64,000 nucleotides of DNA, taken from an uncultured Candidatus Saccharibacteria bacterium. GTDB taxonomy: Bacteria; Patescibacteriota; Minisyncoccia; JAHISW01; Tagabacteraceae. The stretch is from assembly GCA_964601305.1 (NCBI GenBank), contig CAZRMW010000001.1, positions 34,376 through 98,375 on the forward strand, given 5' to 3'. A model generated the notes under the pieces. It was given only the letters and a program-made list of their open reading frames with translations. It was not told the origin of the DNA and made no database searches. A program made the position numbers and the translations under genes. Shown here one piece after another: positions 3,043-62,231 of this stretch. How positions within the stretch are numbered: the stretch's first letter is position 1; the number at the start of each line of letters is the position of its first letter.

Positions 3043-6000
3043 CTAAAACAACCCCTCCGGCGATGTGGTAGCTGTGTTTTCTATCCATTCAATAAGAGTT
3101 GCGGTGATAGCCGAAAGACCATCTCCAAGTACGCCGAGTAAATTGTTTTCAAAAGTAACATTACTTAAACTCGTCGTAGAATTTTCTACTACAACAGCTG
3201 CCTTCGTACCCCACGGCCCACTGTAGTTATGCTCTTCAAATCTCGCATTTTCTATACTCACATTTTCAGAATTTACAGCACGAATCCCATGAGGATAATT
3301 ATTTTTAAATAAAGCATTTGCTATCTGCGCTGTAGACCCTTCTAGCAAAATACCCGCTTTGTCTCTTCCTCCAGACATTACGCTCCCCGCATACTTCATA
3401 GTAAATCCACTTGCCACAAGAGATCCAGTTTCGGAAATATTTATCCCAGCAAACTGCCCAGCTTGAGGCATCGTAGATGTTTCATCGTTGTTAGAATCCC
3501 CACTTATCTCATCGTCATAAATACTTGTAAAAATTATGTCACTCGGATTCTGTCCATCTATTACAAAATTTCCGTTTACATTTAATGTTTTCTCTCCACC
3601 CTTTATTACCACTCCGTTTTCAATAGTTAATTGCGAAGATTCTACTACCGTCGGAGTCTCATATCCATTTAAATAATAAGGTATATCATTTGATTTTAAA
3701 GTTTTTGTTGAATTAGTATTAGTTAAATTTCCCCAAATATTAATGGAGTTGGGATTGTTATTTGACCCACTGTTTCCAGAAAAACTTCCCAGCTCTCCCG
3801 AGGAATAAATTGCACCTCCAGAATTAGAAGTAAAAGTATTGTTATTTGCGATTGTATTTGAATTGCTTAAATAAAGTCCTCTTAAATTTTCTAAAAAAGT
3901 ATTATTGTTTATTGTCGGCTCTCCATTTTCTGTGTATACACCATCAGCCTCATTGCCCTCAAAAACAGAGTTTGCAATTTGCGAATTAGAATTTTTTAAT
4001 CTCAAACCATAAACTTTTGAATATTTAAAACTGGAATTAGATACAGATATTTCTGGCCCCCAAGAGACAAGCAATGATTTATCAAAAGAGTTGTTATAAT
4101 ATTTTCCACCATAGCTAAAATTAGTATATTCAAAAATAGATCCATTTTCTGCATTTTCGTTTATGCAAATACCAAACCAATCTCCAGGATTAGGATTTTC
4201 TTGAGCACTCGTAAAAGCTATTGGCTCACTCTCTGTGCCTTGTGCCAAGATTTTTCCCAGAATATTAAACCCCGAATCTCCATTAAACTTAATTTCAACT
4301 CCAGGCTCTACGGTTAATAAAACTCCACTTTCAACAACTGCGTTTATATTGTCCACCAACACTGGATTGTTTAGTCTTCTTATTGTTAAATTTCTATCTA
4401 TATTTTTATTTATAGTTAGTATGCTATTTACACTATTTGCAAATTTCGGAGTACCTTTGTTTCCTAAAAAATCATTGTTTGTGTACCAGTTTTCTGTATC
4501 GTATCTTTCCATTGTATATTTATCTGTATCTCCTGCAGGCCACGCCCCCTCTGGTGTACTATCTATTGTTGTAGTAGCTGTCGAAGTAGCTTGCACCAAA
4601 ACTAATCTCTCTCCACTATTACTAAGCCCATTTCCAAAAGACCCTATATAATCTGCTTCCACATCTGGCACTGAGGTATCGTCCGTTCTTTCTATCAAAT
4701 AATACTCGCCCGACCCAAGAGTACCTGACAAATTTATATATGGTCCGTTGTCTGTTTCTGAAAAAAGTACCCAGCCATCCAAATCTATTCCGTTTTCTGT
4801 ATTATTAAAAAGTTCTATCCATTCATCGTAAGCCGAGTTGTCCGTACCCGCCCATGCGATTTCGTTTATTAAAATCGAATGCTCTGCAAAAACTTCTTCA
4901 GGTGTTTCAGGTGTCGTGCTTGCTGTTTCTGGTGTAGTCGTAGCAACTTCTGAAGTTGAATCTTCCTCTGGAAGTTCAACCTCGCTAATTGAGTCGTCTT
5001 CTATAACAGGCGCCTCCTGAGGATTGTTTGGGGAAGAAACACTTTTTGTTGCAACAACTATCGAGGTCGAACCTCTATAGCGAGGTTCAACCTCACTAAT
5101 TAAGTTGTTGTCTTTTGTGTCCGCCATTGTTTCCACAACTGCAAAAACAGCAGAAACCGCAGTATATTCTTTTTCCTGTTTTTGTGTAGCCCTTTGATTT
5201 GCTTGTTTTTCATCTTTTTCAAAGGTTGAATCTTTATCTTGAAAATTTAGCTTTGAAGTTGTACTTCCTTCAGGAAGTCCAACTTCGTTAATTAAATCAT
5301 TCGTTTGATCTTTTTTTTCTTTGTCAAAAACATCTTTAATTTTGTTGCCAACATTTTTTATTGCTCCCCAAAACCTTGAGCCACTACCCGGTAAAAAATC
5401 TTCTGCAATTGTTATGAGCGCTGTTTTAGGCACAGGCGGTTTTTCTAGTAACGATTCGTCGTTTCGAGCCTTCTCTACTTCTTGAAAGAATAAATTAATT
5501 GCCCCTGCCACGGATATGACTGCCTCACGAGATAAACGGTTCCAGTAGCCCTGGAGGATCGGTTTGTAATCTTCATTGTCGTCCTCCAACTCATACTCTG
5601 CCAACTTCTTTTCACCGTCTTTGTCCCATACCTCCTTTGTTCTTGCCAATTTAAAATAACTTCCATCTTTATCAACACCAAAGCCATATTCATCTCCATC
5701 TATTATTTCTGGCTTATTATACCTTTCATAGCCCTCGCCATTTGCAGTATCTTTACTTAAAAAATAATTATTAGAATAATTTGCTAAATAATCAAAATAT
5801 TCTTCTATGCTCTCAAGAGAAGCTGGCTCATAACTATTTAAGCTATCCGCAATTTTAAAATTTTCTATATTAAATTGTTTTGAAAAATTTTCAAGGGGGC
5901 TATCTCCAGGGTGTGGGTCATTTCTGGTGTGTTCTGGCACGGCCATATCTTCTAGTAAATGCAGAGTAAATCCAAGAGTATAAAACGCGTCTTTTTCATT

Positions 6001-6444
6001 TCCCTTTACGTACTCATAAATTGCTTTTTTCCATGCTTTGTTTCCTTTTGGCATATGAGTATTCATTTGTAGGCCTTGGCTTGTAGCCCACTGCTTTGCT
6101 GTGTTAAGTCCCCTATCCCCAAAAAGGCCTTCGTTGTAAACTGGATCATAAAAATGGTGCATCCATCTTGGTGGAGTGTCTTCGTCTATGGCCCCTTCTA
6201 TTATCCACTCTTTTTGTTTGTCTGTAATACTTCTCTCAAAATTAATATTATAAAAATTTATAGCTTCGTTTGTAAGTGCTGGATGAGTAGTTTTATCGTC
6301 CCAACTAAAAACAGTCTGAGCCCCAAAGCCCAAACTGCTTAAGTAAAACACAAATATTAAAATAAAATTTATTTTTCTGTTCATCCCACTAGAAATTTTC
6401 TTTTTCATGTTTTTAATTTTTTTATTTCTATTAGAGTAATTCAT
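3043..6444 (-). CDS. large secreted multidomain protein: signal peptide, Zn-dependent phospholipase C / S1-P1 nuclease-like domain, lamin-tail domain, right-handed beta-helix repeats
   Basis: N-terminal basic/hydrophobic signal peptide. WDDKTTHPALTNEAI, HHFYDPV and LHLLEDMAVPEHT match the Zn-PLC signature (W-x-x-E/D-x-H, HFYDP, LH-x-x-D). INEIAWAGTDNSAYDEWIELFN is a lamin-tail-domain signature. N-rich repeats (NNNTFLENLRGLYLSNSNTIANNNTFTSNSGG) are pectate-lyase-like beta-helix. Confidence 0.8.
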   Translation of the reverse strand: MNYSNRNKKIKNMKKKISSGMNRKINFILIFVFYLSSLGFGAQTVFSWDDKTTHPALTNEAINFYNINFERSITDKQKEWIIEGAIDEDTPPRWMHHFYDPVYNEGLFGDRGLNTAKQWATSQGLQMNTHMPKGNKAWKKAIYEYVKGNEKDAFYTLGFTLHLLEDMAVPEHTRNDPHPGDSPLENFSKQFNIENFKIADSLNSYEPASLESIEEYFDYLANYSNNYFLSKDTANGEGYERYNKPEIIDGDEYGFGVDKDGSYFKLARTKEVWDKDGEKKLAEYELEDDNEDYKPILQGYWNRLSREAVISVAGAINLFFQEVEKARNDESLLEKPPVPKTALITIAEDFLPGSGSRFWGAIKNVGNKIKDVFDKEKKDQTNDLINEVGLPEGSTTSKLNFQDKDSTFEKDEKQANQRATQKQEKEYTAVSAVFAVVETMADTKDNNLISEVEPRYRGSTSIVVATKSVSSPNNPQEAPVIEDDSISEVELPEEDSTSEVATTTPETASTTPETPEEVFAEHSILINEIAWAGTDNSAYDEWIELFNNTENGIDLDGWVLFSETDNGPYINLSGTLGSGEYYLIERTDDTSVPDVEADYIGSFGNGLSNSGERLVLVQATSTATTTIDSTPEGAWPAGDTDKYTMERYDTENWYTNNDFLGNKGTPKFANSVNSILTINKNIDRNLTIRRLNNPVLVDNINAVVESGVLLTVEPGVEIKFNGDSGFNILGKILAQGTESEPIAFTSAQENPNPGDWFGICINENAENGSIFEYTNFSYGGKYYNNSFDKSLLVSWGPEISVSNSSFKYSKVYGLRLKNSNSQIANSVFEGNEADGVYTENGEPTINNNTFLENLRGLYLSNSNTIANNNTFTSNSGGAIYSSGELGSFSGNSGSNNNPNSINIWGNLTNTNSTKTLKSNDIPYYLNGYETPTVVESSQLTIENGVVIKGGEKTLNVNGNFVIDGQNPSDIIFTSIYDDEISGDSNNDETSTMPQAGQFAGINISETGSLVASGFTMKYAGSVMSGGRDKAGILLEGSTAQIANALFKNNYPHGIRAVNSENVSIENARFEEHNYSGPWGTKAAVVVENSTTSLSNVTFENNLLGVLGDGLSAITATLIEWIENTATTSPEGLF

Positions 6445-27667: not shown

Positions 27668-27749
27668 GCCGTCGTGGCGGAACTGGCATACGCGCACGAC
27701 TCAAAATCGTGTGAGGCAACTCATGTGGGTTCGACTCCCACCGACGGCA
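27668..27749 (+). tRNA. tRNA-Leu (anticodon CAA)
   Basis: Acceptor GCCGTCG/CGACGGC, anticodon arm CACGA-CTCAAAA-TCGTG, long variable arm (type II), T-arm GTGGG-TTCGACT-CCCAC, discriminator A; no encoded CCA. Confidence 0.75.
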
Positions 27750-27756
27750 CAAAACT

Positions 27757-29629: not shown

Positions 29630-29660
29630 AAAGCCCTTGCCTTATTGGCAAAGGGTTTTT
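29629..29660. terminator. terminator hairpin AAGCCCTTGCC-ttatt-GGCAAAGGG plus T-run
   Basis: GC stem plus TTTTT immediately after the stop of 29312..29629. Confidence 0.5.
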
Positions 29661-29674
29661 ATTATACAAATACA

Positions 29675-31750
29675 ATGAAATATTATATTTTTACATTTGG
29701 GTGTGGCGCCAACCACGCTGACAGTGAAAGAATCGCCAGAAAATTGAAAGCCCTCGGCCACAAAAAAGCAGTTTCTTCCAAAGAGGCTAGTTTAATAGTG
29801 CTCAATGCCTGCTCTGTTAGAAAATCTGCTATAGATAGAGTTTATGGCAAAGTAAAAAATCTAAAAAACAAGCAAATTATACTAGCAGGCTGTCTCCTTG
29901 ATTCAGATAGAAAAAAATTAGAAAAAAAAGTAAAAGCTATTTGGCATCCAGACGAATATTTCGATTTATCCCCCATAAACGAAACTTCTTTTCGTGCGCT
30001 TATACCAATCACAAAAGGTTGTAATAATTTTTGTTCGTACTGTGCTGTGCCCTACACACGAGGAAAAGAAAAATCTCGCCCAGCAAAAGACATAATCAAT
30101 GAAATTAAAGAATTAATAAAAAATAATTATAAAGAAATATGGCTGTTGGGACAAAATGTAAATAGCTATAAATCTGGGAAAACAAATTTTCCAAAACTTC
30201 TTCAGAAAATAAACAAGATTGAAGGTAATTTTTGGATAAAATTTACTTCCCCTCACCCAAAGGATTTCTCCAACGAATTAATACAAACTATAAAAAAATG
30301 TGAAAAGGTTACCAACTACATAAACCTGCCTGTTCAATCTGGGGACAATGAAATTTTGAAGAAAATGAATCGAAAATATACACGCCAGCACTACATTAAG
30401 CTTGTAAACAAAATTAAAAAAGCTATTCCAGATGTAGCAATTTCTACAGATACTATCGTAGGATTCCCTGGAGAAACACGCACTCAATTTAAAAACACTC
30501 TAGATTTGTACAAAAAAATTAAATTCGATATGGCTTTTATTTCACAATACTCCCCTCGCACAGGCACCGTATCCGCACGAACTATGAAAGACAACATAAA
30601 ACACATAAAAAAAGAAAAGCGCGACAAAGAGCTTACAAAAGTATTAGCCAAATATTCGCTCGAGAAAAATAAAAAATTAGTTGGGCAAACTATAAAAGTT
30701 TTAATTGACTCACAAAAAGACACTAATTTTTTTGGCCGCACAGAAGGCAACAAAATAGTTAAAATAAATAAAACTGATTCTATAAGTATAGGAAAATTTG
30801 TAGATATAAAAATAACAAAAGCTACCTCTTGGAAGCTGGAGGGAGAAATCGCTCCTACAAAAATTATAGTAGTTTTGGGCCCCACAAGCTCTGGAAAAAG
30901 CGACTTAGCTGTAGATATAGCTCTTCAATTCCCTTCTGAAATTATTTCTGCAGATTCTAGGCAAGTTTATAAACACATACCTATCGGTACAGGGGCTATA
31001 ACCAAAAAAGAAATGAAGGGTATTTCCCATCATTTGCTAGGTTTTGTAAATCCCAAAAAAACATATACTGCAATAGATTTTAAAAAAGATGCAGAAAAAG
31101 CTATAAAAGAAATTCTAAACAAAAACAAAATACCAATAATATGTGGTGGCACAGGGTTTTATATACAAACACTTTTAAGTGGCAATAATTTACCAAAAGT
31201 AAAACCAAACTGGCCTCTTAGAAAAAAAATGGAGAAAAAAACAGCAGGCCAACTTTTTAAACAACTTCAAAAGCTCGACCCCAAACGCGCTAAAAACATA
31301 GATTCAAAAAACAAGCGGCGTTTAATTCGTGCTATCGAGATTGCTATCAAATTAACGAAGTCGGACTTCGATAGTTCACTACCGAAATCCGACTTCAATA
31401 GTTGGGATGTGCTGTATTTAGGTATAGAAAGAAAAAGTGGTAATTTAGAAAAACTTATCAGAAAAAGAATTTTGGGACTTATAAAAAGAGGGCTTTTGGC
31501 AGAAGTAAAAAATTTAAGAAAGAAAAAAGTCTCCTGGAAAAGAATAGACGAACTAGGTTTTGAGTATAAATACCCAGCTCAATATATCCGCGAAGAAATA
31601 AATAAAGAAGAAATGGTAGAAAAAATACTTACAGGAAATAATAAGTACGCAAAAAGACAGATGACTTGGTTTTTAAAATATACCCCAAAGACAATTTGGG
31701 TAAAAAATTCTAAGGAAGCTATGAAATTATCTAAAAAATTTTTAGACTAA
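29675..31750 (+). CDS. miaB-miaA: fusion protein: MiaB-like radical-SAM methylthiotransferase (MTTase-N, radical SAM, TRAM) fused to MiaA tRNA dimethylallyltransferase
   Basis: Start MKYYIFTFGCGANHADSE (MTTase N-terminus Cys), LNACSVR, AGC, CNNFCSYCAVP radical SAM, TRAM region; then IIVVLGPTSSGKSDLAVDIAL (P-loop), ISADSRQVYKHIPIGT, HHLLGF = MiaA. Single continuous 692-aa ORF. Confidence 0.8.
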   Translation: MKYYIFTFGCGANHADSERIARKLKALGHKKAVSSKEASLIVLNACSVRKSAIDRVYGKVKNLKNKQIILAGCLLDSDRKKLEKKVKAIWHPDEYFDLSPINETSFRALIPITKGCNNFCSYCAVPYTRGKEKSRPAKDIINEIKELIKNNYKEIWLLGQNVNSYKSGKTNFPKLLQKINKIEGNFWIKFTSPHPKDFSNELIQTIKKCEKVTNYINLPVQSGDNEILKKMNRKYTRQHYIKLVNKIKKAIPDVAISTDTIVGFPGETRTQFKNTLDLYKKIKFDMAFISQYSPRTGTVSARTMKDNIKHIKKEKRDKELTKVLAKYSLEKNKKLVGQTIKVLIDSQKDTNFFGRTEGNKIVKINKTDSISIGKFVDIKITKATSWKLEGEIAPTKIIVVLGPTSSGKSDLAVDIALQFPSEIISADSRQVYKHIPIGTGAITKKEMKGISHHLLGFVNPKKTYTAIDFKKDAEKAIKEILNKNKIPIICGGTGFYIQTLLSGNNLPKVKPNWPLRKKMEKKTAGQLFKQLQKLDPKRAKNIDSKNKRRLIRAIEIAIKLTKSDFDSSLPKSDFNSWDVLYLGIERKSGNLEKLIRKRILGLIKRGLLAEVKNLRKKKVSWKRIDELGFEYKYPAQYIREEINKEEMVEKILTGNNKYAKRQMTWFLKYTPKTIWVKNSKEAMKLSKKFLD

Positions 31751-32936: not shown

Positions 32937-33407
32937 CTACATCACAGAAAATTTTTTATTTTTCAAATCAACTAGATGTAGGCCAAACAAATTTGTATTT
33001 AATTTTTTAAATCCAAGTTTTTGATACAAAATATTAGCCCCCTTTCTTTCAGAACTAGAGCCACTTGTTAAATATACGGATCTCACTTTTCTTTTTTTTG
33101 CTTCTTTCAACAATACTTTCATAAGTTTTTTACCAATTCCCTGGTGTCGATAATCTTTGTCAACAAATACGTCATCTATCATTGCTTTCTTGCAAACATA
33201 TATTTCCACAAAATGTATAGAAGCTGTGCCTACAATTTTCTCTTCATCAAAAGCTCCAAAAGAAATAAAATCTCCGTCCAAAATTCTCTTGATATCTATC
33301 TCTGACAAGCTCTTAGCATTTTTAGTAAGTTGCTTCATCAAGCTATTTAAAGACTTAATAAACTCTTCGTTTATATCTTTCTTTTTTATTTGTCTTATTT
33401 TTACCAT
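32937..33407 (-). CDS. GNAT-family N-acetyltransferase
   Basis: RHQGIGKKLMKVLLKEAKKRK (acetyl-CoA binding R/Q-x-x-G-x-G/A motif) and YLTSG...NILYQKLGF. Confidence 0.7.
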   Translation of the reverse strand: MVKIRQIKKKDINEEFIKSLNSLMKQLTKNAKSLSEIDIKRILDGDFISFGAFDEEKIVGTASIHFVEIYVCKKAMIDDVFVDKDYRHQGIGKKLMKVLLKEAKKRKVRSVYLTSGSSSERKGANILYQKLGFKKLNTNLFGLHLVDLKNKKFSVM

Positions 33408-33467
33408 ATAAAATATAGTGAACTAAATACTAAGTTTATTTCATGATACTCTAAAAAACCTGTGTTT

Positions 33468-33647
33468 TTACTTCTTCCAGTCTTCTAAAATTATTCTGCT
33501 TCCAACTTTTCGGACTTTTATTTTTTGTCTTTCTCGCCATTTCAACTCACGCACAATTTCAATAGGTAAAGTTAGCCCCATACTTCGTCCCCCACCCATT
33601 CTTGTTAATTTCCTCAAATTTTTCTCTTTTAATTTTCGTCTTGCCAT
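33468..33647 (-). CDS. AbrB/MazE/SpoVT-fold small DNA-binding protein (59 aa; not in ORF track)
   Basis: MARRKLKEKNLRKLTRMGGGRSMGLTLPIEIVRELKWRERQKIKVRKVGSRIILEDWKK: swapped-hairpin pattern (G-x-x-x-T-L/I-P-x-E-I-R-x-x-L); 60 nt upstream of the GNAT gene. Confidence 0.5.
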   Translation of the reverse strand: MARRKLKEKNLRKLTRMGGGRSMGLTLPIEIVRELKWRERQKIKVRKVGSRIILEDWKK

Positions 33648-33668
33648 ATTTTGAGTATATCATACCTG

Positions 33669-33748
33669 CTACTGAATTAAATACTGAATTAATTCAGTAG
33701 CAAGAAAAAAGTACAAAACACCGCGACCGCTACATTTTGTACTTTTTT
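33669..33748. terminator. two consecutive hairpins (CTACTGAATTAA..TTAATTCAGTAG; AAAAAAGTACAAAA..TTTTGTACTTTTTT)
   Basis: Perfect stems with A/T runs downstream of tRNA-Trp / element A on the minus strand. Confidence 0.5.
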
Positions 33749-33876
33749 ATTTCGAGCACGGGATGAGGGAATCGGTCACAAATCACTAAGTATATTTCTT
33801 CGCTACGCTCGAAATCTACAAAGTGTTCGCGACCCCGCCTCCTTCACTTCGTTCAGTCCGGCATTCGATTCCCTCC
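33747..33876. repeat. partial duplicate of the tRNA-Trp 3' end (TTTCGAGCACGGGATGAGGGAATCGG) fused to a GC-rich about 100-nt element bounded by inverted T-arm-like repeats
   Basis: 25-nt identity with the 3' end plus trailer of tRNA-Trp 190 bp away, in direct orientation; junction GG|TCACAAATC; element ends GGCATTCGATTCCCTCC (inverse of GAGGGAATCG). Confidence 0.45.
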
Positions 33877-33933
33877 TTTTTCTGAACTTACAAAACAAAA
33901 AACATGGCATTTAGCCATCTTTTTTGTTTCGAG

Positions 33934-34004
33934 CACGGGATGAGGGAATCGAACCCCCGACCGCGGTTTTGGAGACCGCTATTATACCACTTAACTAATC
34001 CCGC
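33934..34004 (-). tRNA. tRNA-Trp (anticodon CCA)
   Basis: Acceptor GCGGGAT/ATCCCGT (G1-U72), anticodon arm GCGGT-CTCCAAA-ACCGC, T-arm GGGGG-TTCGATT-CCCTC, discriminator G. Confidence 0.65.
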
Positions 34005-34074
34005 TTTTGTTTTTCTGGTTATACTGATAGTATAACAGAAGATAAAAATTTTCTACAGAAAAGGATCTTTAAAA

Positions 34075-34422
34075 ATGAACGAAAAAAATTTTGAAAGATA
34101 TTGTCCAAAATGCAACAAAAAAGCTGAAAAGTGCAATCAATCCATTTTTAGAGTAATTAGCTGGTTCAGCACAGTAAAAAGAATTGATATAATCTATTTT
34201 CTTTGCAGTAATTGTCGATTAGTTTATATAGACAAAAGTATTGTTTTAAAAATTATAAGTGATTTTAGAAGATCTTTGAGAAAAGACCAGAGAAAGAAAC
34301 TTTCCCACCTAGAGACGTACCAGAGAATTTTAAAAACACTAGAAAAAGATATTTCAGAATTTAGAGTAAATCGTCTTGGATATAGAAAAGTAGATCGTTT
34401 CAACAAAAAGCCTAGCAAATGA
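34075..34422 (+). CDS. hypothetical Cys-rich (Zn-ribbon-like) basic protein
   Basis: 115-aa ORF with CPKC...C and CSNC; opposite strand to its neighbours. Confidence 0.3.
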   Translation: MNEKNFERYCPKCNKKAEKCNQSIFRVISWFSTVKRIDIIYFLCSNCRLVYIDKSIVLKIISDFRRSLRKDQRKKLSHLETYQRILKTLEKDISEFRVNRLGYRKVDRFNKKPSK

Positions 34423-34435
34423 TTGCCAGGGCTTT

Positions 34436-34597
34436 TTATTTTTTTTTGCCTTCTTTGTGTGGCGTACGCTTCTTACACCACTTGCAAAACTTACTGAACT
34501 CTATTTTACGCTCAACTTTTTTCTTGTTTTTGCGGGTCCAGTAATTGATTCTTTTACATTCTCCGCAAAGTAGTTTAATTAGTTTGTCTTGGCTCAT
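34436..34597 (-). CDS. rpmG: 50S ribosomal protein L33 (Zn-ribbon type); missed by ORF track (53 aa)
   Basis: MSQDKLIKLLCGECKRINYWTRKNKKKVERKIEFSKFCKWCKKRTPHKEGKKK: C-x-x-C...NY-x-T-x-KNKK...C-x-x-C...H-K-E pattern of L33. Confidence 0.8.
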   Translation of the reverse strand: MSQDKLIKLLCGECKRINYWTRKNKKKVERKIEFSKFCKWCKKRTPHKEGKKK

Positions 34598-34633
34598 AGG
34601 GAATAATATATATCAAGACAGCCAAAAAAGCAA

Positions 34634-34856
34634 CGGTGGGGAGGGATTCGGTCACAAGTCTGCCTGTATAGAGGGATTCGGCCGCTCTCGTGGATCTCGT
34701 TTCGTGCTACGCACTCGCTGCGATCTCACTCCCTCGGCCCCCACTCGGGCTGTCGTCCGCCCAAGGCGGACTCGCTTCACCAGCCCTCGGTTCGAATCCT
34801 TCCTCACTGCAAAACAGTAAAGCCTCAATGCTTCGCATTGAGACTAAACTGTTTTG
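34634..34856 (-). other. GC-rich structured element B (about 220 nt) between tRNA-Tyr and rpmG, beginning with a partial duplicate of the tRNA-Tyr 3' end; homologous to element A
   Basis: GGGGAGGGATTCGG|TCACAAGTC shares the junction motif with 33762..33785; internal GC-rich stems (GTCCGCCCAAGGCGGAC); ends with sense T-arm-like GGTTCGAATCC; GC content far above its surroundings. Confidence 0.4.
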
Positions 34857-34941
34857 TGCATGGGGAGGGATTCGAACCCCCGTAGTCCGTTAGGACGACA
34901 GTTTTACAGACTGTTGCATTTAGCCACTCTGCCACCCATGC
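34857..34941 (-). tRNA. tRNA-Tyr (anticodon GUA), long variable arm
   Basis: Acceptor GCATGGG/CCCATGC, anticodon arm ACAGT-CTGTAAA-ACTGT, variable arm GTCC-TAAC-GGAC, T-arm GGGGG-TTCGAAT-CCCTC, discriminator A. Confidence 0.75.
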
Positions 34942-34944
34942 AAA

Positions 34945-37608
34945 TTACGCTACTTTCACTTTATTTTTAGTTCTCTTTTTGGGTTTCTTTTTAGAAACAC
35001 CCTCTACTGCCAGCTCGTTATTCTTTACTTTTACACTCACCAAATCGCCTTTAGATATATTATCAGAAATAATTAGTTCGGCAACTGTATTTAAAATTTT
35101 GTTTTGAATTAGTCGCTTCAAAGGTCTCGCTCCATATTGTGGACTAAAACCTTGTTGCGCCAAAAGAAACAAAGCATCGTTTGATATTTTAAATCCAATA
35201 TCTTTCACCTTTAGTCTGTCTACAACTTCTTCTATTTGAATTTTAACAATTTCTTTCAAGTCGCCTGTTGTAAGTCTGTTGAAAATAACCACCTCGTCTA
35301 GTCTGTTTATAAATTCCGGTCTAAAACGAGTCTCTAATGCTCTATTAATTTTTTCCTTCAGAGATTGTTCTTGAGCTTTTTGTGTTGAACCAGTAGAAAA
35401 ACCGATTTGAGAAATTTTTCTCACATATTCAGAGCCTACATTTGATGTCATTATAAGAATTGTGTTTTTGAAGTTTACATGCCTCCCTTTTGCATCTGTA
35501 AGTCGTCCATTGTCTAAAATCTGAAGCATTATATTAAACACCTCTGGATGAGCTTTTTCTATTTCGTCAAAAAGAACTACAGAGTATGGCCTATGCCTAA
35601 TTGTCTCGGTAAGTTGTCCGCCCTCTTCATGCCCTACATAGCCCGGAGGAGAACCCATCATTTTAGAAACCGCGTGCTTCTCCATATATTCAGACATATC
35701 CACTCTAATAAGCGCCTTTTCGTCGTTGAACATAAATTTGGCAAGAGTTTTTGCTAACTCCGTTTTACCAATACCTGTTTGCCCCAAAAACATAAATGAA
35801 CCAATAGGTTTTTCCATATCTGAAATACCAGCTCTCGATCTACGTATAGCTTGAGCAATCTTTTTAATTGCCTCGTCTTGCCCTATTACTTTCTTTCTTA
35901 GAGTCTCTTCAATCTTAAGTAGTTTTTTAGCTTCAGTCTCAAGCATTTTATTTACAGGAATACCTGTCCACCTAGAAACAACATCAGCTATTTCTTCTTC
36001 TGTAATCTCTTCTTTAAGAACTTTTCTTGAAATCTGTAATTTCTTAAGTCTTGTTTCTTGTTTTCTAAGCTCTTCTTCAGCTTCTGGAATATTGCCATAG
36101 CGAATCTCTGCAACTCTAGTAAGATTACCCCTCCTCTCCTCATTGTCGGCCTCAAGACGCATTGTTTCTAATTCGCTTTTTAGTTGTCTTATTTGCAAAA
36201 TTGTTTCTTTTTCGTTTTTCCACTTAAGCTCTGTTGAAGAAACCTGTTCTTTTAGGTCATCTATTTCTTTGTTTATTTTTTTAATTTTTGTTTTGGCTTT
36301 GCTGTCGCTTTTTAAAGCTTCTTTTTCAATTTCCAAATTTCTTATTTTTTTATAAGTAATTTCTAAATCTTTAGGCATACTATCTAGCTCCAATCTAAGA
36401 GCAGATGAAGATTCGTCTATCAAATCTATCGCTTTATCCGGCAAAAACCTATCTGTGATATACCTACTTGAAAGATGTACCGCAGATTTTATAGCAGGGT
36501 CAGTAATACGAACACCATGGTGAAGTTCGTACTTTTCTTTTATGCCTCTTAAAATTGCTATTGTATCTTCTTGAGAAGGCTCTTCTACATAAATCGGCTG
36601 AAATCTTCTCGTAAGCGCTGGATCTTTTTCTATGTATTTTTGGTATTCTTTTAATGTAGTAGCTCCAACAGCTCGAAGCTCCCCTCTTGCCAAAGCTGGT
36701 TTTAACAAATTAGAAGCATCTATGGCGCCCTCTGCTCCACCTGCACCAATAATAGTGTGAAGCTCGTCTATAAAAAGAATCACTTTGCCTTTTGCTCTTT
36801 CTATTTCTCTCATCAACATTTTAAGCCTGTCTTCAAATTCTCCACGATATTTTGTGCCTGCTACTAAAGACCCAATATCTAAAGATATTACTTCTTTGTC
36901 TTTTAAAGAATCTGGCACCTCGCCTTGGGCAATTCTTTGACTAAGACCTTCTACTACAGCTGTTTTCCCGACTCCGGCCTCACCAATAAGCACTGGGTTA
37001 TTTTTTGTTCTTCTAGATAAAATTTGCATTATTCGCCTTATTTCTTCCTCCCTGCCTATTACTGGATCTAGTTTGTCTTCCCTCGCCATTTTAGTAAGAT
37101 TTCTGGAATATTTTTCTAAAATCTTGAGCTTGCTTTTTTCTGTGGCATCATGAACTTTTTGATCACCGCTAATATTTTTTAAAACATTTAAAATACTTTC
37201 TTTCTCTACACGATGCTTTAGTAAAATTTCTTTCGCTTTAGACTGAACTTCTGAAAGACCCAAAAGCAAATGCTCTGTTGATATAAAATTATTTCCAACA
37301 GTTTTTGCCACTTTGAAAGACGCTTCAATAACCCTACCTAAATCTGGGGTAAGGTATACTTGCTGAATAGGCATCACCACTCCTCCTCCACTTGATTCGT
37401 CAAGTTCGTCTAGTATAGAATCTGTTAGAAAATTAATGTCTATTTCTAATTTATCAAAAATTGAAAACACTACGCTATCATCCTGAAGCACTAGTGCAGC
37501 TAAAAGATGAAGCGTGTCGATCTGAGTTTGACCCCGCTCCATAGCTAGTTCATGTGCTCTTCTAATTGCTTCTTGAGCTTTCGCTGTAAAATTCGAAAAT
37601 GGTAACAT
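34945..37608 (-). CDS. clpB: ClpB disaggregase (two AAA+ modules plus middle coiled coil)
   Basis: N-domain, NBD1 Walker A GEAGVGKT, long M-domain coiled coil, NBD2 [12 protein letters not shown]; 887 aa. Confidence 0.9.
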
Positions 37609-38892: not shown

Positions 38893-39336
38893 TTATACCT
38901 CTTTTTCTTCTTTTTTTAAATTCTCTATTACTTTTTTGAAAGCCTGATCAGCTAAAACAGAACAATGTACTTTTATTGCCGGAAGTCCGCCCAGTTCTTT
39001 TATAATATCTTGGGGTGTAATTTTTAGCGCTTCGTCTATCGTTTTCCCCTTAACCATTTCTGAAAAAACGGAAGTAGAAGCAATGGCCGTAGCACACCCA
39101 AAAGTCCGCCATTTTAAATCTTTTATTTTAGATTGCTTGCCCTGCCCGGCGGGGTCCAGTTTCACCCACATTTTCATTACATCACCACAAGCTGGAGAGC
39201 CAACTTCTCCCACAGCATCAAACTCCCCTTCTTTAGGGTCTTTGAGTAAAACATTTTTAGGATTGAAAAAATGATCTTTTACCTTGTCAGAATAAAACCA
39301 TTCTTGATCTTCTTTTTTTATATCTGCTTTTGTCAT
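38893..39336 (-). CDS. NifU/IscU-type Fe-S cluster scaffold
   Basis: SPACGDVM, TFGCATAIAS conserved cysteines; start at MTKADIKK (39336). Confidence 0.8.
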   Translation of the reverse strand: MTKADIKKEDQEWFYSDKVKDHFFNPKNVLLKDPKEGEFDAVGEVGSPACGDVMKMWVKLDPAGQGKQSKIKDLKWRTFGCATAIASTSVFSEMVKGKTIDEALKITPQDIIKELGGLPAIKVHCSVLADQAFKKVIENLKKEEKEV

Positions 39337-39507
39337 TTTATTTATGTTTATTAATTCAAAAAACAATATTAAATTTTAAAAATTTATCGCAGGCTGAGCG
39401 GGCATGGTTTTTTCTGAAAGAAAAAGAGCGAAGCCGAGATATAAGCAAATTTTTCACGCTGGGAAAAATATTGCGTTTTTTAAAATTTAGATATTGGTTT
39501 TTAGAAA

Positions 39508-40725
39508 TTATCTCACAGAAGAAATTCCTTTTAATTTTAAAATAATATCTGGCAAAATTTTTAATACATAGTCTACTTCTTTTTTTGTAGTCTCTTTGCC
39601 CATCGTAAATCTAAGCGAACCATGAGCATATTCATGTCCCATACCAATCGCACGTATCACGTGTGAAGGCTCCAAACTATCCGAAGTACACGCCGAGCCC
39701 GTAGAGCAAGCCACGCCCTTAGCATCAAGATATAGCACCATTGCTTCTCCCTCCACACCACGTACAGATATATTTACATTATTAGGAAGCCTATCTTCTC
39801 TTGAACCATTTAAAACACTGTTTGGTATCGTTTTTAATAATTTATCTATAAAATAATCCCTAATTCCAATAAGTCTTTTTGATTCTTTTTCTTTATTTTT
39901 TTGAACTAATTCAAGCGCTTCTCCAAAACCCACAATTCCAGATACATTTTCCGTACCAGACCTTAAGCCCATTTCTTGCCCACCGCCTACGACCATCGGA
40001 TCTATTTTAATTCCTCTTTTTTTATAGAGCATTCCTACACCCTTTGGCCCATATATTTTAGAACCATTTAAAGTCATTAAGTCTACACCCAATTTCAAAA
40101 CATTTAGATCCAAATAAGCCGGTGCTTGCACAGCATCTGTATGTATCAGTGGAGTTTGCAGGTTGTAGGTTGTAGGTTGTAGGCTTTTTTTGAAATTTCT
40201 GATTATTTTTGCGATTTCACGAATTGGCTGTATAGCACCAATTTCATTGTTTGCATACATTATAGAAACCAAAACAGTCTCTTTTCTTAAAGATTCCTTT
40301 AATTGTTTCAAATCTACAATGCCATTTTTATCTACATTTAAATAAGTAATTTCCCAGCCACTTTTTTCTAATCTTTCACAAGCATGAAGCACAGCGTGAT
40401 GCTCTATTTTTGACGTAATAATATGCTTGACACCCTCTCTGTTGGAAGTCGGACTTCCAACAGAATTGGCTATGCCGAAAATTGCTAAATTATCACTCTC
40501 TGTGCCACCGCCAGTAAAAATAATCTCGTCTGAATGGGCGTTTATTGTCTGTGCCACTTTTAATCTAGCCTCCGAAATTGCTTTTTTGGCTTCCCTGCCT
40601 TCTTCATAAATAGAAGATGGATTGCCAAAAACATCGCTAAAAAACGACTCCATTGCTTTTTTAACTTTTGGATCTAAATATGTGGTAGCTGAATGATCTA
40701 AATATATCCTTTTATCTTTATTCAT
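39508..40725 (-). CDS. iscS: cysteine desulfurase (class V aminotransferase, IscS/NifS)
   Basis: YLDHSATT, LNGSKIYGPKGVGMLY (PLP-Lys), SGSACTS (catalytic Cys loop); start at MNKDKRIY (40725). The upstream 33 codons of the track ORF are a repeat element. Confidence 0.85.
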   Translation of the reverse strand: MNKDKRIYLDHSATTYLDPKVKKAMESFFSDVFGNPSSIYEEGREAKKAISEARLKVAQTINAHSDEIIFTGGGTESDNLAIFGIANSVGSPTSNREGVKHIITSKIEHHAVLHACERLEKSGWEITYLNVDKNGIVDLKQLKESLRKETVLVSIMYANNEIGAIQPIREIAKIIRNFKKSLQPTTYNLQTPLIHTDAVQAPAYLDLNVLKLGVDLMTLNGSKIYGPKGVGMLYKKRGIKIDPMVVGGGQEMGLRSGTENVSGIVGFGEALELVQKNKEKESKRLIGIRDYFIDKLLKTIPNSVLNGSREDRLPNNVNISVRGVEGEAMVLYLDAKGVACSTGSACTSDSLEPSHVIRAIGMGHEYAHGSLRFTMGKETTKKEVDYVLKILPDIILKLKGISSVR

Positions 40726-41470: not shown

Positions 41471-42121
41471 TTAAAAATACTCTTGTAAATAGCACTTTCT
41501 ATGAACATCCAAAATACCATTTTTCTTTATTGCTTCGTAATGTTTTTTTGTACCATATCCTTTGTGGCAGTCGAAACAATATTCTGGATAAATTTTGTGT
41601 AGTTTTTTCATTTTTCTATCTCTTTTTACTTTCGCCATTATTGAAGCAGCAGAAATAATAGAAATTTTTTCATCTCCCTTTATAACTGTTTTTTGATTAT
41701 AATGTTTCGGCGCCTTTAACCCTCCGTCTAATAAAACTAAACAATTTTGCGTCGACATCGGGTGTCGATGTAGATGTAGTTTTCGCAAAGCGTGATTTAA
41801 TGCTAGTTTTGTAGCTTTTTGTATACCAATTTTGTCTATAACTTTTGGACCCACCATTGCCACGCTATAGCTAAAATTATTTTTTATTATTTCAAACCAA
41901 TCTTCTCTTTTTTTTTCAGAAAGCTTTTTAGAGTCTTTTATACCTTTCAAAAATTGAAAATTGAGTTTTGAAAATTTATTGAAAATTGAAAATTGAAAAT
42001 TAGAAATTGTTGTTGCAACAGCAGCAACTGCCACCGGTCCGGCCAGTGGCCCTCTCCCCGCCTCGTCTATTCCAACAATAATGCATTCTTTTTTATCCTT
42101 CATATTCTTCATTAACTTCAT
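41471..42121 (-). CDS. rnhB: ribonuclease HII
   Basis: GIDEAGRGPLAGPV, DSKKLS, ASIMAK motifs; contains two apparent in-frame DNA-repeat insertions. Confidence 0.85.
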   Translation of the reverse strand: MKLMKNMKDKKECIIVGIDEAGRGPLAGPVAVAAVATTISNFQFSIFNKFSKLNFQFLKGIKDSKKLSEKKREDWFEIIKNNFSYSVAMVGPKVIDKIGIQKATKLALNHALRKLHLHRHPMSTQNCLVLLDGGLKAPKHYNQKTVIKGDEKISIISAASIMAKVKRDRKMKKLHKIYPEYCFDCHKGYGTKKHYEAIKKNGILDVHRKCYLQEYF

Positions 42122-42315: not shown

Positions 42316-42696
42316 TCAACATCCGTTGCGTGCAACCGGTCGGTAGACGGCGATATTCCGCAGAGATCCGATGGCGTCCATGTAAGACCAATGCCGGGAT
42401 CTGACGATGTCGTATAAATTGAGTTTACGGGTGGCGCTGGCAATGTTCATCCGGAACTTTCCATTATAGTAGATGACGGCAGTGGCCAGCAGAGCAAGGG
42501 TGAAGATGGCAGCCGCGACGACCACGATCAGTGGCAGCGCCGGTCCGAAGGTTATGGTGGTAAGACTCGAAAAACTTTTCAGCATGGTGCCGATGACGCC
42601 GACGCTCGCAGTGGCCGATGCCGTCATCGCCGTGATGGTAACTCCAACTACGAGGGCAACAATGAGCCCTATGAGAAATACGGCAAATCTGTTCAT
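42316..42696 (-). CDS. GC-rich small membrane protein (2-3 TM), likely horizontally acquired
   Basis: 126-aa ORF; Ala/Val/Thr-rich TM helices; region 42190..42720 much GC-richer than the flanks. Confidence 0.5.
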   Translation of the reverse strand: MNRFAVFLIGLIVALVVGVTITAMTASATASVGVIGTMLKSFSSLTTITFGPALPLIVVVAAAIFTLALLATAVIYYNGKFRMNIASATRKLNLYDIVRSRHWSYMDAIGSLRNIAVYRPVARNGC

Positions 42697-44626: not shown

Positions 44627-46099
44627 TTAAATTTTTATGTTTTTTAAAAATATACTAAAATCTATAATATCTATTTTACCATTACCGTCTAAATCTATTT
44701 CTCTTCTAAGCGATTTTTCTTTAGACCCCCATCTAAACAAAAACATACTCCAATCTACAACATTTATAGAATTGTCTTTGTTAAAATCTGCTTTAGGAAA
44801 ACTTAGAGACGACACTCTAAAAGAACGCGGAAAAGAAAAACCACTATCTTTTCCTTCTTTGTTTGTTTGACCAACACGAACTTGAAAATCCCCTGCCCCC
44901 AAATTGCTTGGATTTAAAATAAATTCATAATAACCATTATTATTAGCTTTTGTTTCTTCTTTTATTATATCACCTACCTCTATTTTTACTGCACTTCCTG
45001 CTGTGGAATACCCAAATATTTTTATATTTTTGTCTAGTGTAAAAATACCGTTACCAAAATTTATTGTTGGTGGGAAAAGGATATCTCTAGCTACTAAACT
45101 TTTTTCAGAATTAAAATCTACATTAAATGACATTGACCCAGTTTTTTGTCCCATTTTATCTATAGCCCTAATACTAAAAAAGTATCTGCCTGTAAGAAAA
45201 GCTGTGTAAGATATATTAAACTCTCCGCTACTTGATATATTGTATGTACTAAGTGGTACATTTCTATATACATCGCTAACATCATCTCTAAATAAAACCT
45301 CCACTTCGCTTCTTGGAAAAGCTTTGCCAGAAAAAAGAACTCTTGTGGGAGCCACCCCTCCACCCGTAGGAGTAGATATGCTTGGTTGCCCACCAGATCC
45401 ATTTGTGACTGTAGTAGCCTCACTTGGCACATTAGATAAACTTGAAGTGTTTGGAACTTCGTCGGATACTTTAATAGCAAAGTAATAAGTAGTATTTGCA
45501 CTAAGCCCGGAAACTGTCATACTCTCAGAGCTTCCCGCCACACTTGGTGTGGGCTCTCCTGTGACCTGTGTTGCATTATTAAAATCTGTGTCGTTTGTGA
45601 TGTTTGAGGTTGAATAACGAACATCGTAAGTTGTGGTAGTTCCCGAACCAGCGTCATCGCCTGGTGCTGTCCACGAGAGATTTATGGAAGTTTGGGTAGC
45701 CCCTAAAGCGGTTAAATTATTCACCGCCGACGGTGCTGTAGTATCAGAAGGCGGAGTTGTATATGTAAAACCACCAACTAAAGTTCCCGATTTACCATCT
45801 GATGTACGAGTATAAACAACATCCTGTGCCCCAGCTGTGCCACTAGGAGTTGTCGCTGTCATCTCTGTGCTACTTACAATAATAAGATTTGTTACTGACC
45901 CCCCACCAATAGTCAGCGTTCCTGCTGCAAAACCTGTCCCACCGATAGTTACATCGATCCCTCCCGCCGTTGAACCAGAAGTGGGAGAAATAGAATTAAC
46001 ACTTGGTGCTGGTGCAGCAAAGACACTCCCTGTACTTAAAAAATAGAGGAATAAAAAAACTACTAAAAATTTTAATGAGTGCCCACAAAAATATCTCAT
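44627..46099 (-). CDS. secreted protein with IPT/TIG, fibronectin-III-like and C-terminal dockerin-like domains
   Basis: Signal peptide; GGIDVTIGGTGF (IPT); TSINLSWTAPGDDAGSGTTTTYDVRY (FN3); DFNKDNSINVVDWSMF...DLDGNGKIDIIDFSIF (paired dockerin Ca-binding repeats). Confidence 0.6.
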   Translation of the reverse strand: MRYFCGHSLKFLVVFLFLYFLSTGSVFAAPAPSVNSISPTSGSTAGGIDVTIGGTGFAAGTLTIGGGSVTNLIIVSSTEMTATTPSGTAGAQDVVYTRTSDGKSGTLVGGFTYTTPPSDTTAPSAVNNLTALGATQTSINLSWTAPGDDAGSGTTTTYDVRYSTSNITNDTDFNNATQVTGEPTPSVAGSSESMTVSGLSANTTYYFAIKVSDEVPNTSSLSNVPSEATTVTNGSGGQPSISTPTGGGVAPTRVLFSGKAFPRSEVEVLFRDDVSDVYRNVPLSTYNISSSGEFNISYTAFLTGRYFFSIRAIDKMGQKTGSMSFNVDFNSEKSLVARDILFPPTINFGNGIFTLDKNIKIFGYSTAGSAVKIEVGDIIKEETKANNNGYYEFILNPSNLGAGDFQVRVGQTNKEGKDSGFSFPRSFRVSSLSFPKADFNKDNSINVVDWSMFLFRWGSKEKSLRREIDLDGNGKIDIIDFSIFLKNIKI

Positions 46100-61671: not shown

Positions 61672-62231
61672 GTCCACTCAAACACCAATACTGCAAAATC
61701 AAAAGCATCGACTACACCATCTTTGTTTATATCAACACAAGATTGAAGAGGTTTTTCTACCTTCCAATAAAAAATAAGTGTTGCAAAATCAAAAGCATCT
61801 ACATCTCCGTCAAGATTAAAATCTGCTCCATTACACTCACTTACAACACCTGCTCCTCCACCTATTATTCCACCTCCGCCCCCCCTAACAGCCGTAGCCG
61901 TTTCTTCTGCGACTGCTGTTGCCGCTGTTGCTGTAATATCGGCTATAACTTCCCCTACACCGCCTTCGTTGTTAAAGTTAGTACTGGAACTTTCCCCAGC
62001 AAGCGCCTCACCAAAAGACCCAATCATCAGATAATTACTGGATGTTGCACTCGCAACACCCCCACTATTAAAACTTGATCCTCTTATACGAAAATTTGAA
62101 CTACTTACAGTTTCTGCGCACACATGTCCATATACAAAAAAACCTCCGAAAACAGATATGCACAAAATAATAAATATATTTTTTCGCATAATTTTCACAT
62201 TCATACATATATAAAACCTATTCCTTTCCAA
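61665..62231 (-). CDS. secreted Gly/Ala-rich protein with C-terminal dockerin-like domain
   Basis: Signal peptide; ADFNLDGDVDAFDFATLIFYW...DINKDGVVDAFDFAVLVFEW = two dockerin Ca-binding repeats. Confidence 0.55.
   Translation of the reverse strand: MERNRFYICMNVKIMRKNIFIILCISVFGGFFVYGHVCAETVSSSNFRIRGSSFNSGGVASATSSNYLMIGSFGEALAGESSSTNFNNEGGVGEVIADITATAATAVAEETATAVRGGGGGIIGGGAGVVSECNGADFNLDGDVDAFDFATLIFYWKVEKPLQSCVDINKDGVVDAFDFAVLVFEWTP

Follow-up and report, generated by a model that had tools for sequence, protein, structure and literature searches.

The 64,000-nucleotide (nt) stretch of contig CAZRMW010000001.1 analyzed here (the window; positions 34,376 to 98,375 in assembly GCA_964601305.1, from an uncultured Candidatus Saccharibacteria bacterium) carries a GC-rich unit directly downstream of its tRNA-Trp gene. 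This unit, termed element A (33742-33876, minus strand), belongs in intact form to a family of conserved, structured elements that occur in many copies and are associated with the 3' ends of tRNA genes. This widespread family was absent from the reference resources searched and is so far uncatalogued. We lean toward reading element A as an intact short-form copy of a family of small (~100–170 nt), non-autonomous, site-specific insertion elements that colonize tRNA 3' ends in Patescibacteria, the tiny bacteria of the candidate phyla radiation. Coordinates given without a locus number (prefix L) are those of the window.

Element A and the repeated tail of tRNA-Trp

Element A lies behind its host gene, tRNA-Trp(CCA), which is intact and has no encoded CCA (33934-34004, minus strand; called by ARAGORN and scoring 63.3 bits against Rfam RF00005). 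The 25-mer TTTCGAGCACGGGATGAGGGAATCG occurs exactly twice in the window (33750-33774 and 33927-33951), with none of 100 shuffles giving any match. On the tRNA strand it comprises the 18 nt from T-loop C56 to the discriminator G and 7 nt of trailer. A preliminary description of the locus, made from the sequence alone, had recognized this duplication of the last 18 nt of tRNA-Trp and 7 nt of trailer, but had placed the copies 190 bp apart, whereas the spacing is 177 nt. At 97% identity, the direct repeat can be followed over 33 nt (33742-33774 and 33919-33951), and just ~150 nt of non-coding sequence lie between its copies. The GC content of element A is 48–55% in a window of 34% GC, and the unit is bounded by an exact 10-nt inverted repeat (GAGGGAATCG and CGATTCCCTC, 33765-33774 and 33866-33875), in agreement with the earlier proposal of a GC-rich segment that ends in the inverse of its own start.

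Read along the minus strand, on which all the following parts lie, the proximal direct repeat (DR1, 33919-33951) runs from C56 (33951) to the discriminator (33934) and through 15 nt of trailer and A-tract. A terminator-like hairpin, T1 (33893-33929; A-tract, ATGGC-loop-GCCAT, U-tract), detected in a hairpin scan (33918-33904) and as an inverted repeat, separates tRNA-Trp from element A. The 5' arm, GGAGGGAAUCG (33866-33876), is the reverse complement of the T-loop and T-stem 3' strand of tRNA-Trp and forms helix P1 with the 3' arm, as indicated by the 10/10 inverted repeat, the fold and the family alignment. It is followed by the joining segment J1/2 (AAU) and helix P2 (33837-33865), assigned from conserved alignment columns, in which the block GCCGGAC (33856-33862) has its partner in GAGGC. 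The conserved block GAGGCGGGGUCGCG (33828-33841), invariant in 41/41 aligned members, contains the P2 3' strand, J2/3 (GG) and the start of P3. Helix P3 (33775-33834; GGUCGCGAACAC ... GUGAUUUGUGAC) carries an apical GCGUAGC mini-hairpin (33802-33808) and an invariant G·U pair (alignment pair 81:133, G·U in 41/41) and ends in GUGAC. The distal direct repeat and 3' arm (DR2, 33742-33774) consist of the C56-to-discriminator copy (33774-33757) and trailer, the first C of DR2 closing P3 (alignment pair 77:137). A second terminator-like hairpin, T2 (33702-33751; a 17-nt inverted repeat, 94% complementary), lies 3' of DR2.

Folding of the minus strand, a check proposed in the preliminary description, gave −46.3 kcal/mol (z −3.7), far better than shuffles, compared with −31.5 kcal/mol (z −1.3) for the plus strand. 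In the predicted fold of a transcript covering the tRNA and element A (−104 kcal/mol, z −7.3), the 3' half of the tRNA pairs with the 5' arm, and the distal copy is the partner of the tRNA 5' acceptor strand. Element A showed no promoter-like site.

A family of elements behind tRNA genes

The anatomy of element A recurs behind tRNA-Tyr, tRNA-Trp, tRNA-Leu and tRNA-Cys in many genomes of a comparison set of 80 clpB loci from other Paceibacteria. As a control, 111 tRNAs in independent clpB loci were examined with 300 nt on each side. An exact copy (at least 12 nt) of the tRNA's own tail was present downstream of 15/111 tRNAs and upstream of 0/111, and an inverted tail copy downstream of 17/111 and again upstream of 0/111. 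Several core classes, judged by eye, were apparent among the copies. The class of element A (class 1) is defined by the blocks GCCGGAG, GAGGCGGGGUCGCG and GUGAC, the variants being, in order, GCCGGA(G/C), GAGGC(G/A)GGGU(C/A)G and GU(G/A)AC followed by C, together with P2 and P3. Element A carries every conserved block of this class, with GCCGGAC at 33856-33862, GAGGCGGGGTCGCG at 33828-33841 and GTGAC followed by C at 33774-33779, and is a short form with only the T-loop/T-stem part in its arm.

A pattern scan of metagenome contigs that used the core blocks only returned 120 loci, about half of which were chance matches in high-GC coding DNA; the remainder were strikingly uniform, and a simple helix test retained 44 metagenomic members. 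A same-strand tRNA ended 25–242 nt upstream in 32/44 members (within 94 nt in 30), against a background expectation of 3.9%, and six further members were located at contig edges. Thirteen isotypes are represented among these members, and in 19 of the 44 the 12 nt after GUGAC exactly repeat upstream sequence.

A covariance model, R1, was built from an alignment of 41 sequences (40 members and element A, which as one of the seeds scores 67.3 bits). R1 retrieved 20-odd non-seed copies in the Paceibacteria loci (20–82 bits) and further copies in metagenome contigs, up to three per contig and two or three in several of them, with E-values reaching 1e-12 to 1e-26 in independent genomes. The non-seed scores set beside that of element A are 47–82 bits. 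Most of the R1 copies outside the pattern selection also follow tRNAs, and the elements are co-oriented with the tRNA and lie immediately 3' of it. The unit size is always ~100–200 nt. The preliminary description had made its proposal depend on copies next to other tRNAs, to be sought with a covariance search, and on conservation of the structure; dozens of tRNA-adjacent copies were found in Patescibacteria genomes and metagenomes, with covariation in the fold. A subfamily (for example L017, L155, L182, L193 and L212) shares the P3 base of element A (CGCGAACACUUAG...CUUAGUGAUUYGUGAC).

At least two further core types show the same layout of inverted and direct tail copies (class 2 in L005, L033 and L070; class 3 in L034, L059 and L077); judged by eye only, one of them has GGGGUCGGGAG...CCCGYGGAGGAA and the other is more AT-rich. 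Three class-1-like copies are orphans with no called tRNA adjoining (L230 9048-9142, L259 3820-3918 and L260 9291-9389), the one in L230 having perfect 18-bp arms of non-tRNA sequence and a degenerate direct copy upstream.

Fold and covariation

The 41 aligned members form a three-way junction of P1 (the two arms), P2 and P3. The class 1 layout runs from the 5' arm through J1/2 (GAAA), P2 (GCC-GGAG...GA-GGC), J2/3 (GG) and P3 (GGUCG...GUGAC) to the 3' arm. P2 is made of GCC/GGC with a 3x2 internal loop and a variable hairpin. P3, GGUCG.../...UGACC, also has a variable hairpin and contains a bulged A that is shared by at least 90% of members and lies 8 nt before a boundary ending in AC; the last C of P3 is C56 of the tRNA. 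Paired cells amounted to 88%, compared with 34–44% when partners were slid, and the covariation score was 0.50 against 0.08–0.15 for the slid controls. None of 500 shuffles reached the observed pairing and covariation values, and changes on both sides were seen in 19/27 pairs. One P3 pair is G·U in 41/41 members and a second is G·U in 20. Because of the invariant G·U pair, the fold is assigned to the tRNA-sense strand, as RNA or single-stranded DNA (ssDNA). Since the arms pair (P1) on this strand, the resulting stem is a double-stranded replica of the tRNA gene tail.

Composition of the arms

Across the family the identity block spans the T-loop to the tRNA 3' end. Specifically, the 3' arm reproduces the host tRNA from C56 onward, finishing exactly at CCA for five genes that encode CCA and lacking CCA wherever the host gene does not encode it. 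As CCA is present only where encoded, the tail was copied from DNA or a precursor and not from the mature tRNA; an origin from a reverse-transcribed mature tRNA tail was rejected on the same observation. In the 5' arm the tail, discriminator and CCA included, is present as a genuine reverse complement, and the arms differ between tRNAs. At two tRNA-Ala loci the 5' arm has A opposite U70 where the tRNA has G3. This G3·U70 test rejected the idea that the left arm represents the tRNA's own 5' strands in a tRNA-like minihelix, which was also ruled out by the non-palindromic T-loops of tRNA-Trp and tRNA-Leu. An open acceptor end of the kind found in transfer-messenger RNA (tmRNA) or viral tRNA-like structures was likewise not seen, element A having no acceptor-strand partner.

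In long forms, a conserved hairpin with the loop CUGC interrupts the 5' arm. The length of the duplication varies from 19 to >55 nt. In some copies, presumably the youngest, the repeat takes in the trailer and the entire terminator (L211, and L212 with at least 55 nt), and in some it ends at the terminator U-tract. A subset found mostly behind tRNA-Arg has very short arms (GUG...CAC). At the tRNA-Tyr of L079 the 5' arm tracks the diverged distal copy.

Patchy presence and stacking

The family is patchily present among relatives. L261, with 80% ClpB identity to the window, has identical tRNA-Trp and tRNA-Tyr tails and the same GNAT and MiaB-MiaA neighbors, and carries neither element A nor element B, the unit found behind tRNA-Tyr in the window. 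L001 (75% ClpB identity) also has identical tails of both tRNAs and neither element. At the tRNA-Leu next to parB, the site is empty in L064 and filled in L046 and L079, and the sequence after the distal repeat resembles the flank of the empty site. In L079, one core subclass is present at both tRNA-Tyr and tRNA-Trp with arms matched to each tRNA. The whole unit occurs in identical tandem in L143 and L146, ending at contig breaks. Stacks of intact and decayed units occur behind single tRNAs, with the more diverged tails farther from the tRNA (L162 and L015). In L015 (2993-3560), one tRNA-Tyr is followed by a stack of three core classes, all different, and L212 has three copies within 7 kb.

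Rearrangements of the region were also noted in relatives. The tRNA-Tyr/tRNA-Trp/rpmG block of L261 is inverted relative to clpB. In L263 (5725-6741), open reading frames (ORFs) for a HicB-like antitoxin and a LAGLIDADG endonuclease are inserted between clpB and tRNA-Tyr, which shows this interval to be a general insertion hot spot.

Element B behind tRNA-Tyr

A second GC-rich island (up to 71% GC), element B, follows the tRNA-Tyr(GTA) gene (34857-34941, minus strand; ARAGORN and Rfam) and fits a weak, diverged or decayed relative of the class 1 family. The 20-mer GAYTTGTGAC/CGAWTCCCTC, where the slash marks the junction, occurs at 33765-33784 in element A and at 34641-34660 in element B with two mismatches (expected matches, 0.01), and the block GCTACGC, read as GCGTAGC, is located at 33802-33808 and 34706-34712. 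Both the recurrence of the junction next to tRNA-Tyr and the shared internal block had been pointed out in the preliminary description.

On the minus strand, a terminator-like hairpin (34810-34856; hairpin scan 34845-34821 and inverted repeat) lies between tRNA-Tyr and element B. The 5' arm (34789-34806) is an inverted tRNA-Tyr-like T-loop, T-stem and acceptor 3' strand, 89% complementary to 34861-34878. The body (34661-34788; 62–71% GC) contains GCGUAGC (34706-34712) and a third partial copy of the tRNA tail (34671-34680). It is followed by a class-1-type 3' junction (34637-34660) made of GACUUGUGAC (34651-34660) and CGAAUCCCUCCCCA (34637-34650), the latter being a 14-nt copy of the tRNA-Tyr tail after which the sequences diverge. 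The distal copy thus shares just 14 nt with tRNA-Tyr (CGAATCCCTCCCCA). Against the class 1 model, element B gave a weak end-to-end alignment (11.1 bits, E = 8.5e-4 in a 341-nt search with filters off) with a 71-nt insert in P3, and its last ~55 nt resemble the class 1 3' end. The same-population assembly L267 (>99.6% identical) also carries element B, which is interrupted there by a scaffold gap (a run of N).

Searches against known RNA families, enzymes and mobile elements

At gathering thresholds, Rfam 15, which includes models for hammerhead, hepatitis delta virus (HDV), twister, twister-sister, pistol, hatchet and hairpin ribozymes, riboswitches, tmRNA and Y RNA, matched only tRNAs in the window and 10 canonical loci. 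With the threshold relaxed to E = 10, only tRNAs and noise were obtained for 33400-35100 and for L146 1-420, and the group I (RF00028) and group II (RF00029) intron models gave no match up to that value in the same two regions. Compared by eye, hammerhead, HDV, group II domain V and guanidine-II did not fit the core. The Patescibacteria tRNA introns described so far are group I introns located at position 35/36, and group II introns are reported absent from the phylum (PMC13011429); a link to group I introns was rejected, the 35/36 introns being unrelated (PMC13011429).

Clustering of ORFs over 48 loci revealed housekeeping synteny only. In L261, the closest syntenic relative, the features noted at 294-974 and 5674-6086 comprise the inverted tRNA-Tyr/tRNA-Trp/rpmG block and, 5 kb upstream, a Y1_Tnp transposase gene (IS200/RAYT-like, PF01797), and L168 has a weaker Y1-like fragment ~700 nt away from an element. 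Among the loci covered, homologues were found just in these two, where they are not flanked by elements, and there is none in the window; within this scope Y1_Tnp showed no association with the elements and was set aside as the linked enzyme. A loose pattern scan of IMG/VR gave 60 matches, nearly all by chance in high-GC coding DNA, and retrieved one class 1 copy on a viral-database contig (L083). Apart from L083, no true members were found in IMG/VR with a more specific pattern or in GenBank phages and PLSDB plasmids, and an origin from a phage attachment site (attP) was rejected. No description of such elements was found in the literature by word or sequence search.

Genes around the elements

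The ClpB protein of the window is 75–80% identical to proteins of Patescibacteria (Parcubacteria/Paceibacteria) genomes. The minus-strand order is clpB (37608-34945), tRNA-Tyr, a hairpin, element B, rpmG (34597-34436) and tRNA-Trp, followed by a hairpin, element A, a MazE-like small ORF and a GNAT gene. An exact look-up of the L33 protein of the window matched no record. No further element copies were found in the window, where tRNA-Leu (27668-27750) has a terminator only.

Between rpmG and tRNA-Trp lies a Cys-rich ORF of 115 amino acids (aa) (CPKC...CSNC; 34075-34422, plus strand), without a Pfam match and absent from the corresponding position in the relatives L001 and L261. On the other side of element A, a perfect 14-bp hairpin (TGCTACTGAATTAA / TTAATTCAGTAGCA, 33667-33702) separates T2 from the 59-aa MazE/AbrB-like ORF (33468-33647, minus strand; PF04014 at 17 bits, under the cut-off). 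This ORF lies directly upstream of the GNAT acetyltransferase gene (32937-33407, minus strand), with which it could form a candidate toxin-antitoxin pair; L261 keeps GNAT but not the small ORF. A 701-aa ORF (29645-31750, plus strand) encodes a MiaB-like radical-SAM methylthiotransferase fused to a MiaA-type tRNA isopentenyltransferase, combining two consecutive steps of tRNA A37 modification in a single protein; the fusion is also called in L261 (PF00919, PF04055 and PF01715). A strongly hydrophobic ORF of 126 aa (42316-42696, minus strand) may be of recent foreign origin, as it has ~62–66% GC in a genome of 34% GC. Further local GC peaks were present at 39128-39772, 41986-42103, 45315-45995 and 61819-61972.

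Discussion

Of the explanations considered, insertion of a small mobile unit into tRNA genes is the one to which we give slightly better than even chances. The unit would consist of a replacement tail, a spacer with terminator, an inverted tail and the core, and would enter the chromosome at C56 when its folded replica undergoes site-specific recombination with a genuine tRNA gene. The tRNA would thereby be rebuilt with the element-borne tail, and the original tail, displaced downstream, would become the 3' arm. Later insertions would push older copies away from the tRNA, where they would decay. The recombinase would act in trans, the active folded form may be ssDNA or RNA, and the arms might be re-specified for new tRNAs, perhaps by quasipalindrome template-switch correction. 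Recombination at the T-loop sublocation classically leaves an identity block that reaches from the T-loop to the 3' end of the tRNA, and element A shows such a block. Insertion at C56 would account for this block and for the second terminator, as well as for the empty-site-like flank beyond the distal repeat and the stacking order of old and new copies. The proposal of a tiny, structured, tRNA-targeting element made in the preliminary description is therefore supported, because the same anatomy and core recur with strong covariation behind many tRNAs across Patescibacteria.

Several observations weigh against an insertion element. Spread to new isotypes would require both arms to be re-specified if they are carried by the element, a step left unexplained. 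The conserved junction nucleotides, G·U pairs and bulged A look better suited to a functional RNA than to a site of recombination. In the tRNA-Arg-type subset the repeat begins at the last CAC of the tRNA and not at C56. Neither excised circles nor empty sites within a population were observed, the sole same-population contig (L267) carrying element B. No integrase, transposase, reverse transcriptase or other recurrent mobility gene adjoined any of >60 copies in the ORF clustering, and a crude motif scan of ORFs in the 64-kb window revealed no tyrosine recombinase. The specific pattern gave two matches in the 2.9 million viral contigs of IMG/VR, both in coding sequence, and no copy was found by blastn against GenBank phages and PLSDB plasmids.

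The features that suggest a functional RNA are central to the main rival. Here transcription from the tRNA promoter would run on into the element, and the product would be a structured RNA that works in cis: a three-way junction closed by P1 and serving as a ribozyme or as a switch that senses a ligand or a protein. The 5' arm would pair with the 3' half of the tRNA, blocking its folding, or with the decoy copy, freeing the tRNA, and so would gate maturation. We regard this as possible if on the unlikely side. The invariant G·U pair, the conserved junction nucleotides and bulged A and the covarying helices would all be expected of such an RNA, as would a GC-rich island in AT-rich genomes, the constant co-orientation directly 3' of the tRNA, the complementarity of the 5' arm to the tRNA's own tail, the predicted pairing of the 5' arm in the co-transcript fold and the way in which this arm tracks the diverged distal copy in L079. 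However, a terminator-like hairpin with U-tract often stands between tRNA and element, including in A and B, no promoter of its own was apparent for A, and no known riboswitch or ribozyme family was matched. Moreover, close relatives with identical tRNAs do without the element, and tandem, nested and decayed copies point to selfish insertion over a needed regulator. A related reading, which we hold to be doubtful, makes the core a new catalytic or guide RNA whose 5' arm guides insertion at C56 or a swap or gating of the tRNA 3' segment. A module of tail, spacer, antitail and core would then propagate, possibly in circular form, as a mobile or regulatory system that targets tRNAs at the level of RNA and for which no bacterial counterpart is known.

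Two further explanations were considered. Element A could represent the ordinary attL/attR pair of a phage or island integrated at the T-loop by a tyrosine integrase, with the interior deleted to ~150 bp. The repeat from the T-loop to beyond the tRNA end and the second terminator after the distal copy would agree with this, as would the lineage-specific small ORFs nearby (the MazE-like ORF at 33468-33647 and the 115-aa ORF at 34075-34422) and the several partial tails stacked behind one tRNA, which are also known from tandem islands. Yet dozens of unrelated genomes have the same ~100-nt covarying core with its invariant G·U between the repeats, and independent random deletions would not converge on such a core. 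An inverted tail copy is, in addition, foreign to ordinary attachment remnants, and no full-length parent was found among the viral contigs, phages and plasmids searched. Of the integration remnant envisaged as one option in the preliminary description, the classical version, a decayed island left by an adjacent integrase, was not supported, with no integrase adjoining any copy and units of ~100–200 nt, and we consider an explanation of this type improbable. Chance similarity or a local slippage duplication, leaving a tRNA pseudogene fragment without family or function, is harder still to credit. T-loops are near-palindromic and common to all tRNAs, so that short direct and inverted matches between tRNA neighborhoods are to be expected; nevertheless, the shuffles of the 25-mer, the excess of tail copies downstream of the control tRNAs, the E-values in independent genomes and the covariation controls all speak against it, and chance or slippage was rejected on the covariation, model matches and control tRNAs.

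Patescibacteria have tiny genomes with few recognized mobile elements. Even so, about one in seven tRNA genes in the independent clpB loci sampled (15/111) is followed by an exact duplicate of its 3' tail, the hallmark of the family. Its members combine an integrase-type tail duplication with a compact, strongly conserved, covarying fold of the kind expected of ribozymes, aptamers or folded single-strand recombination sites. If mobile, these elements would be among the smallest site-specific elements known and a model of how parasites can make use of tRNA genes and leave them intact. Should the core act as an RNA, it could represent a class of ribozymes or guides not seen before and add a further level at which tRNAs are controlled. 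On the practical side, the GC-rich hairpins appear to break assemblies, as in the scaffold gap inside element B in L267, and the elements give spurious partial-tRNA signals and should be modelled in annotation pipelines.

Comparison with known systems

P1-closed three-way-junction riboswitches and small ribozymes share with the present elements conserved joining strands, covarying stems and a P1 strand with two possible partners. They differ in that no family match was obtained, the alternative partner here is a tRNA and not an expression platform, and close relatives do without the element. Mobile RNAs such as group I introns in tRNA anticodon loops or the tmRNA T-loop and class IIC introns behind terminators resemble the elements in their ORF-less folded cores, their tRNA or terminator sites and the closing of the fold by pairing with a flanking "exon", and the bulged A 8 nt before an AC-ending boundary recalls group II domain VI. 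The core of ~90 nt is, however, far too small for either intron group, the tRNA is uninterrupted, and neither RF00028 nor RF00029 was matched.

A likeness in architecture is offered by integron attC sites and CTX-phage attP(+), in which inverted arms ~60–140 nt apart form a stem that mimics a double-stranded recombination site and which have strand-specific features, represented here by the invariant G·U (G·T) pair and the bulged A. Their R''/R' motifs (RYYYAAC / GTTRRRY) and dif-like arms are absent from the present elements, whose blocks GCCGGAG, GAGGCGGGGTCG and GTGACC fit none of the motifs. In contrast to these sites, the central part is conserved and not variable, the target is a tRNA gene, and IntI was not detected nearby.

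MITEs (miniature inverted-repeat transposable elements) and REPIN/REP elements, moved in trans by enzymes such as RAYT Y1 transposases, are likewise small, non-coding, multi-copy hairpins bounded by inverted repeats, with the enzyme encoded elsewhere, a patchy presence among relatives and tandem or nested arrangements. In size and ends (<~300 bp, non-coding, terminal inverted repeats) element A agrees with a MITE. A parent insertion sequence sharing its terminal repeats was not found, the duplication varies in length where MITEs have a short target duplication of fixed length, and no cognate transposase with matching ends was detected. The arms copy the neighboring tRNA in place of a fixed sequence, insertion is only at tRNA 3' ends, and the interior is a conserved branched fold and not a simple stem.

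The tRNA-targeting integrative elements that use the T-loop sublocation of tyrosine-integrase att sites, and miniature derivatives of them such as cis-mobilizable elements (CIMEs), have in common with the present family that the tRNA is left intact through a duplicated tail from the T-loop to the 3' end, that partial tails are stacked and that a fresh terminator follows the rebuilt tRNA. Unlike these, the present units are 100–200 nt long, encode nothing and have no linked integrase; they add an inverted tail and a conserved, covarying three-way-junction core, and one core serves at least 13 tRNA isotypes.

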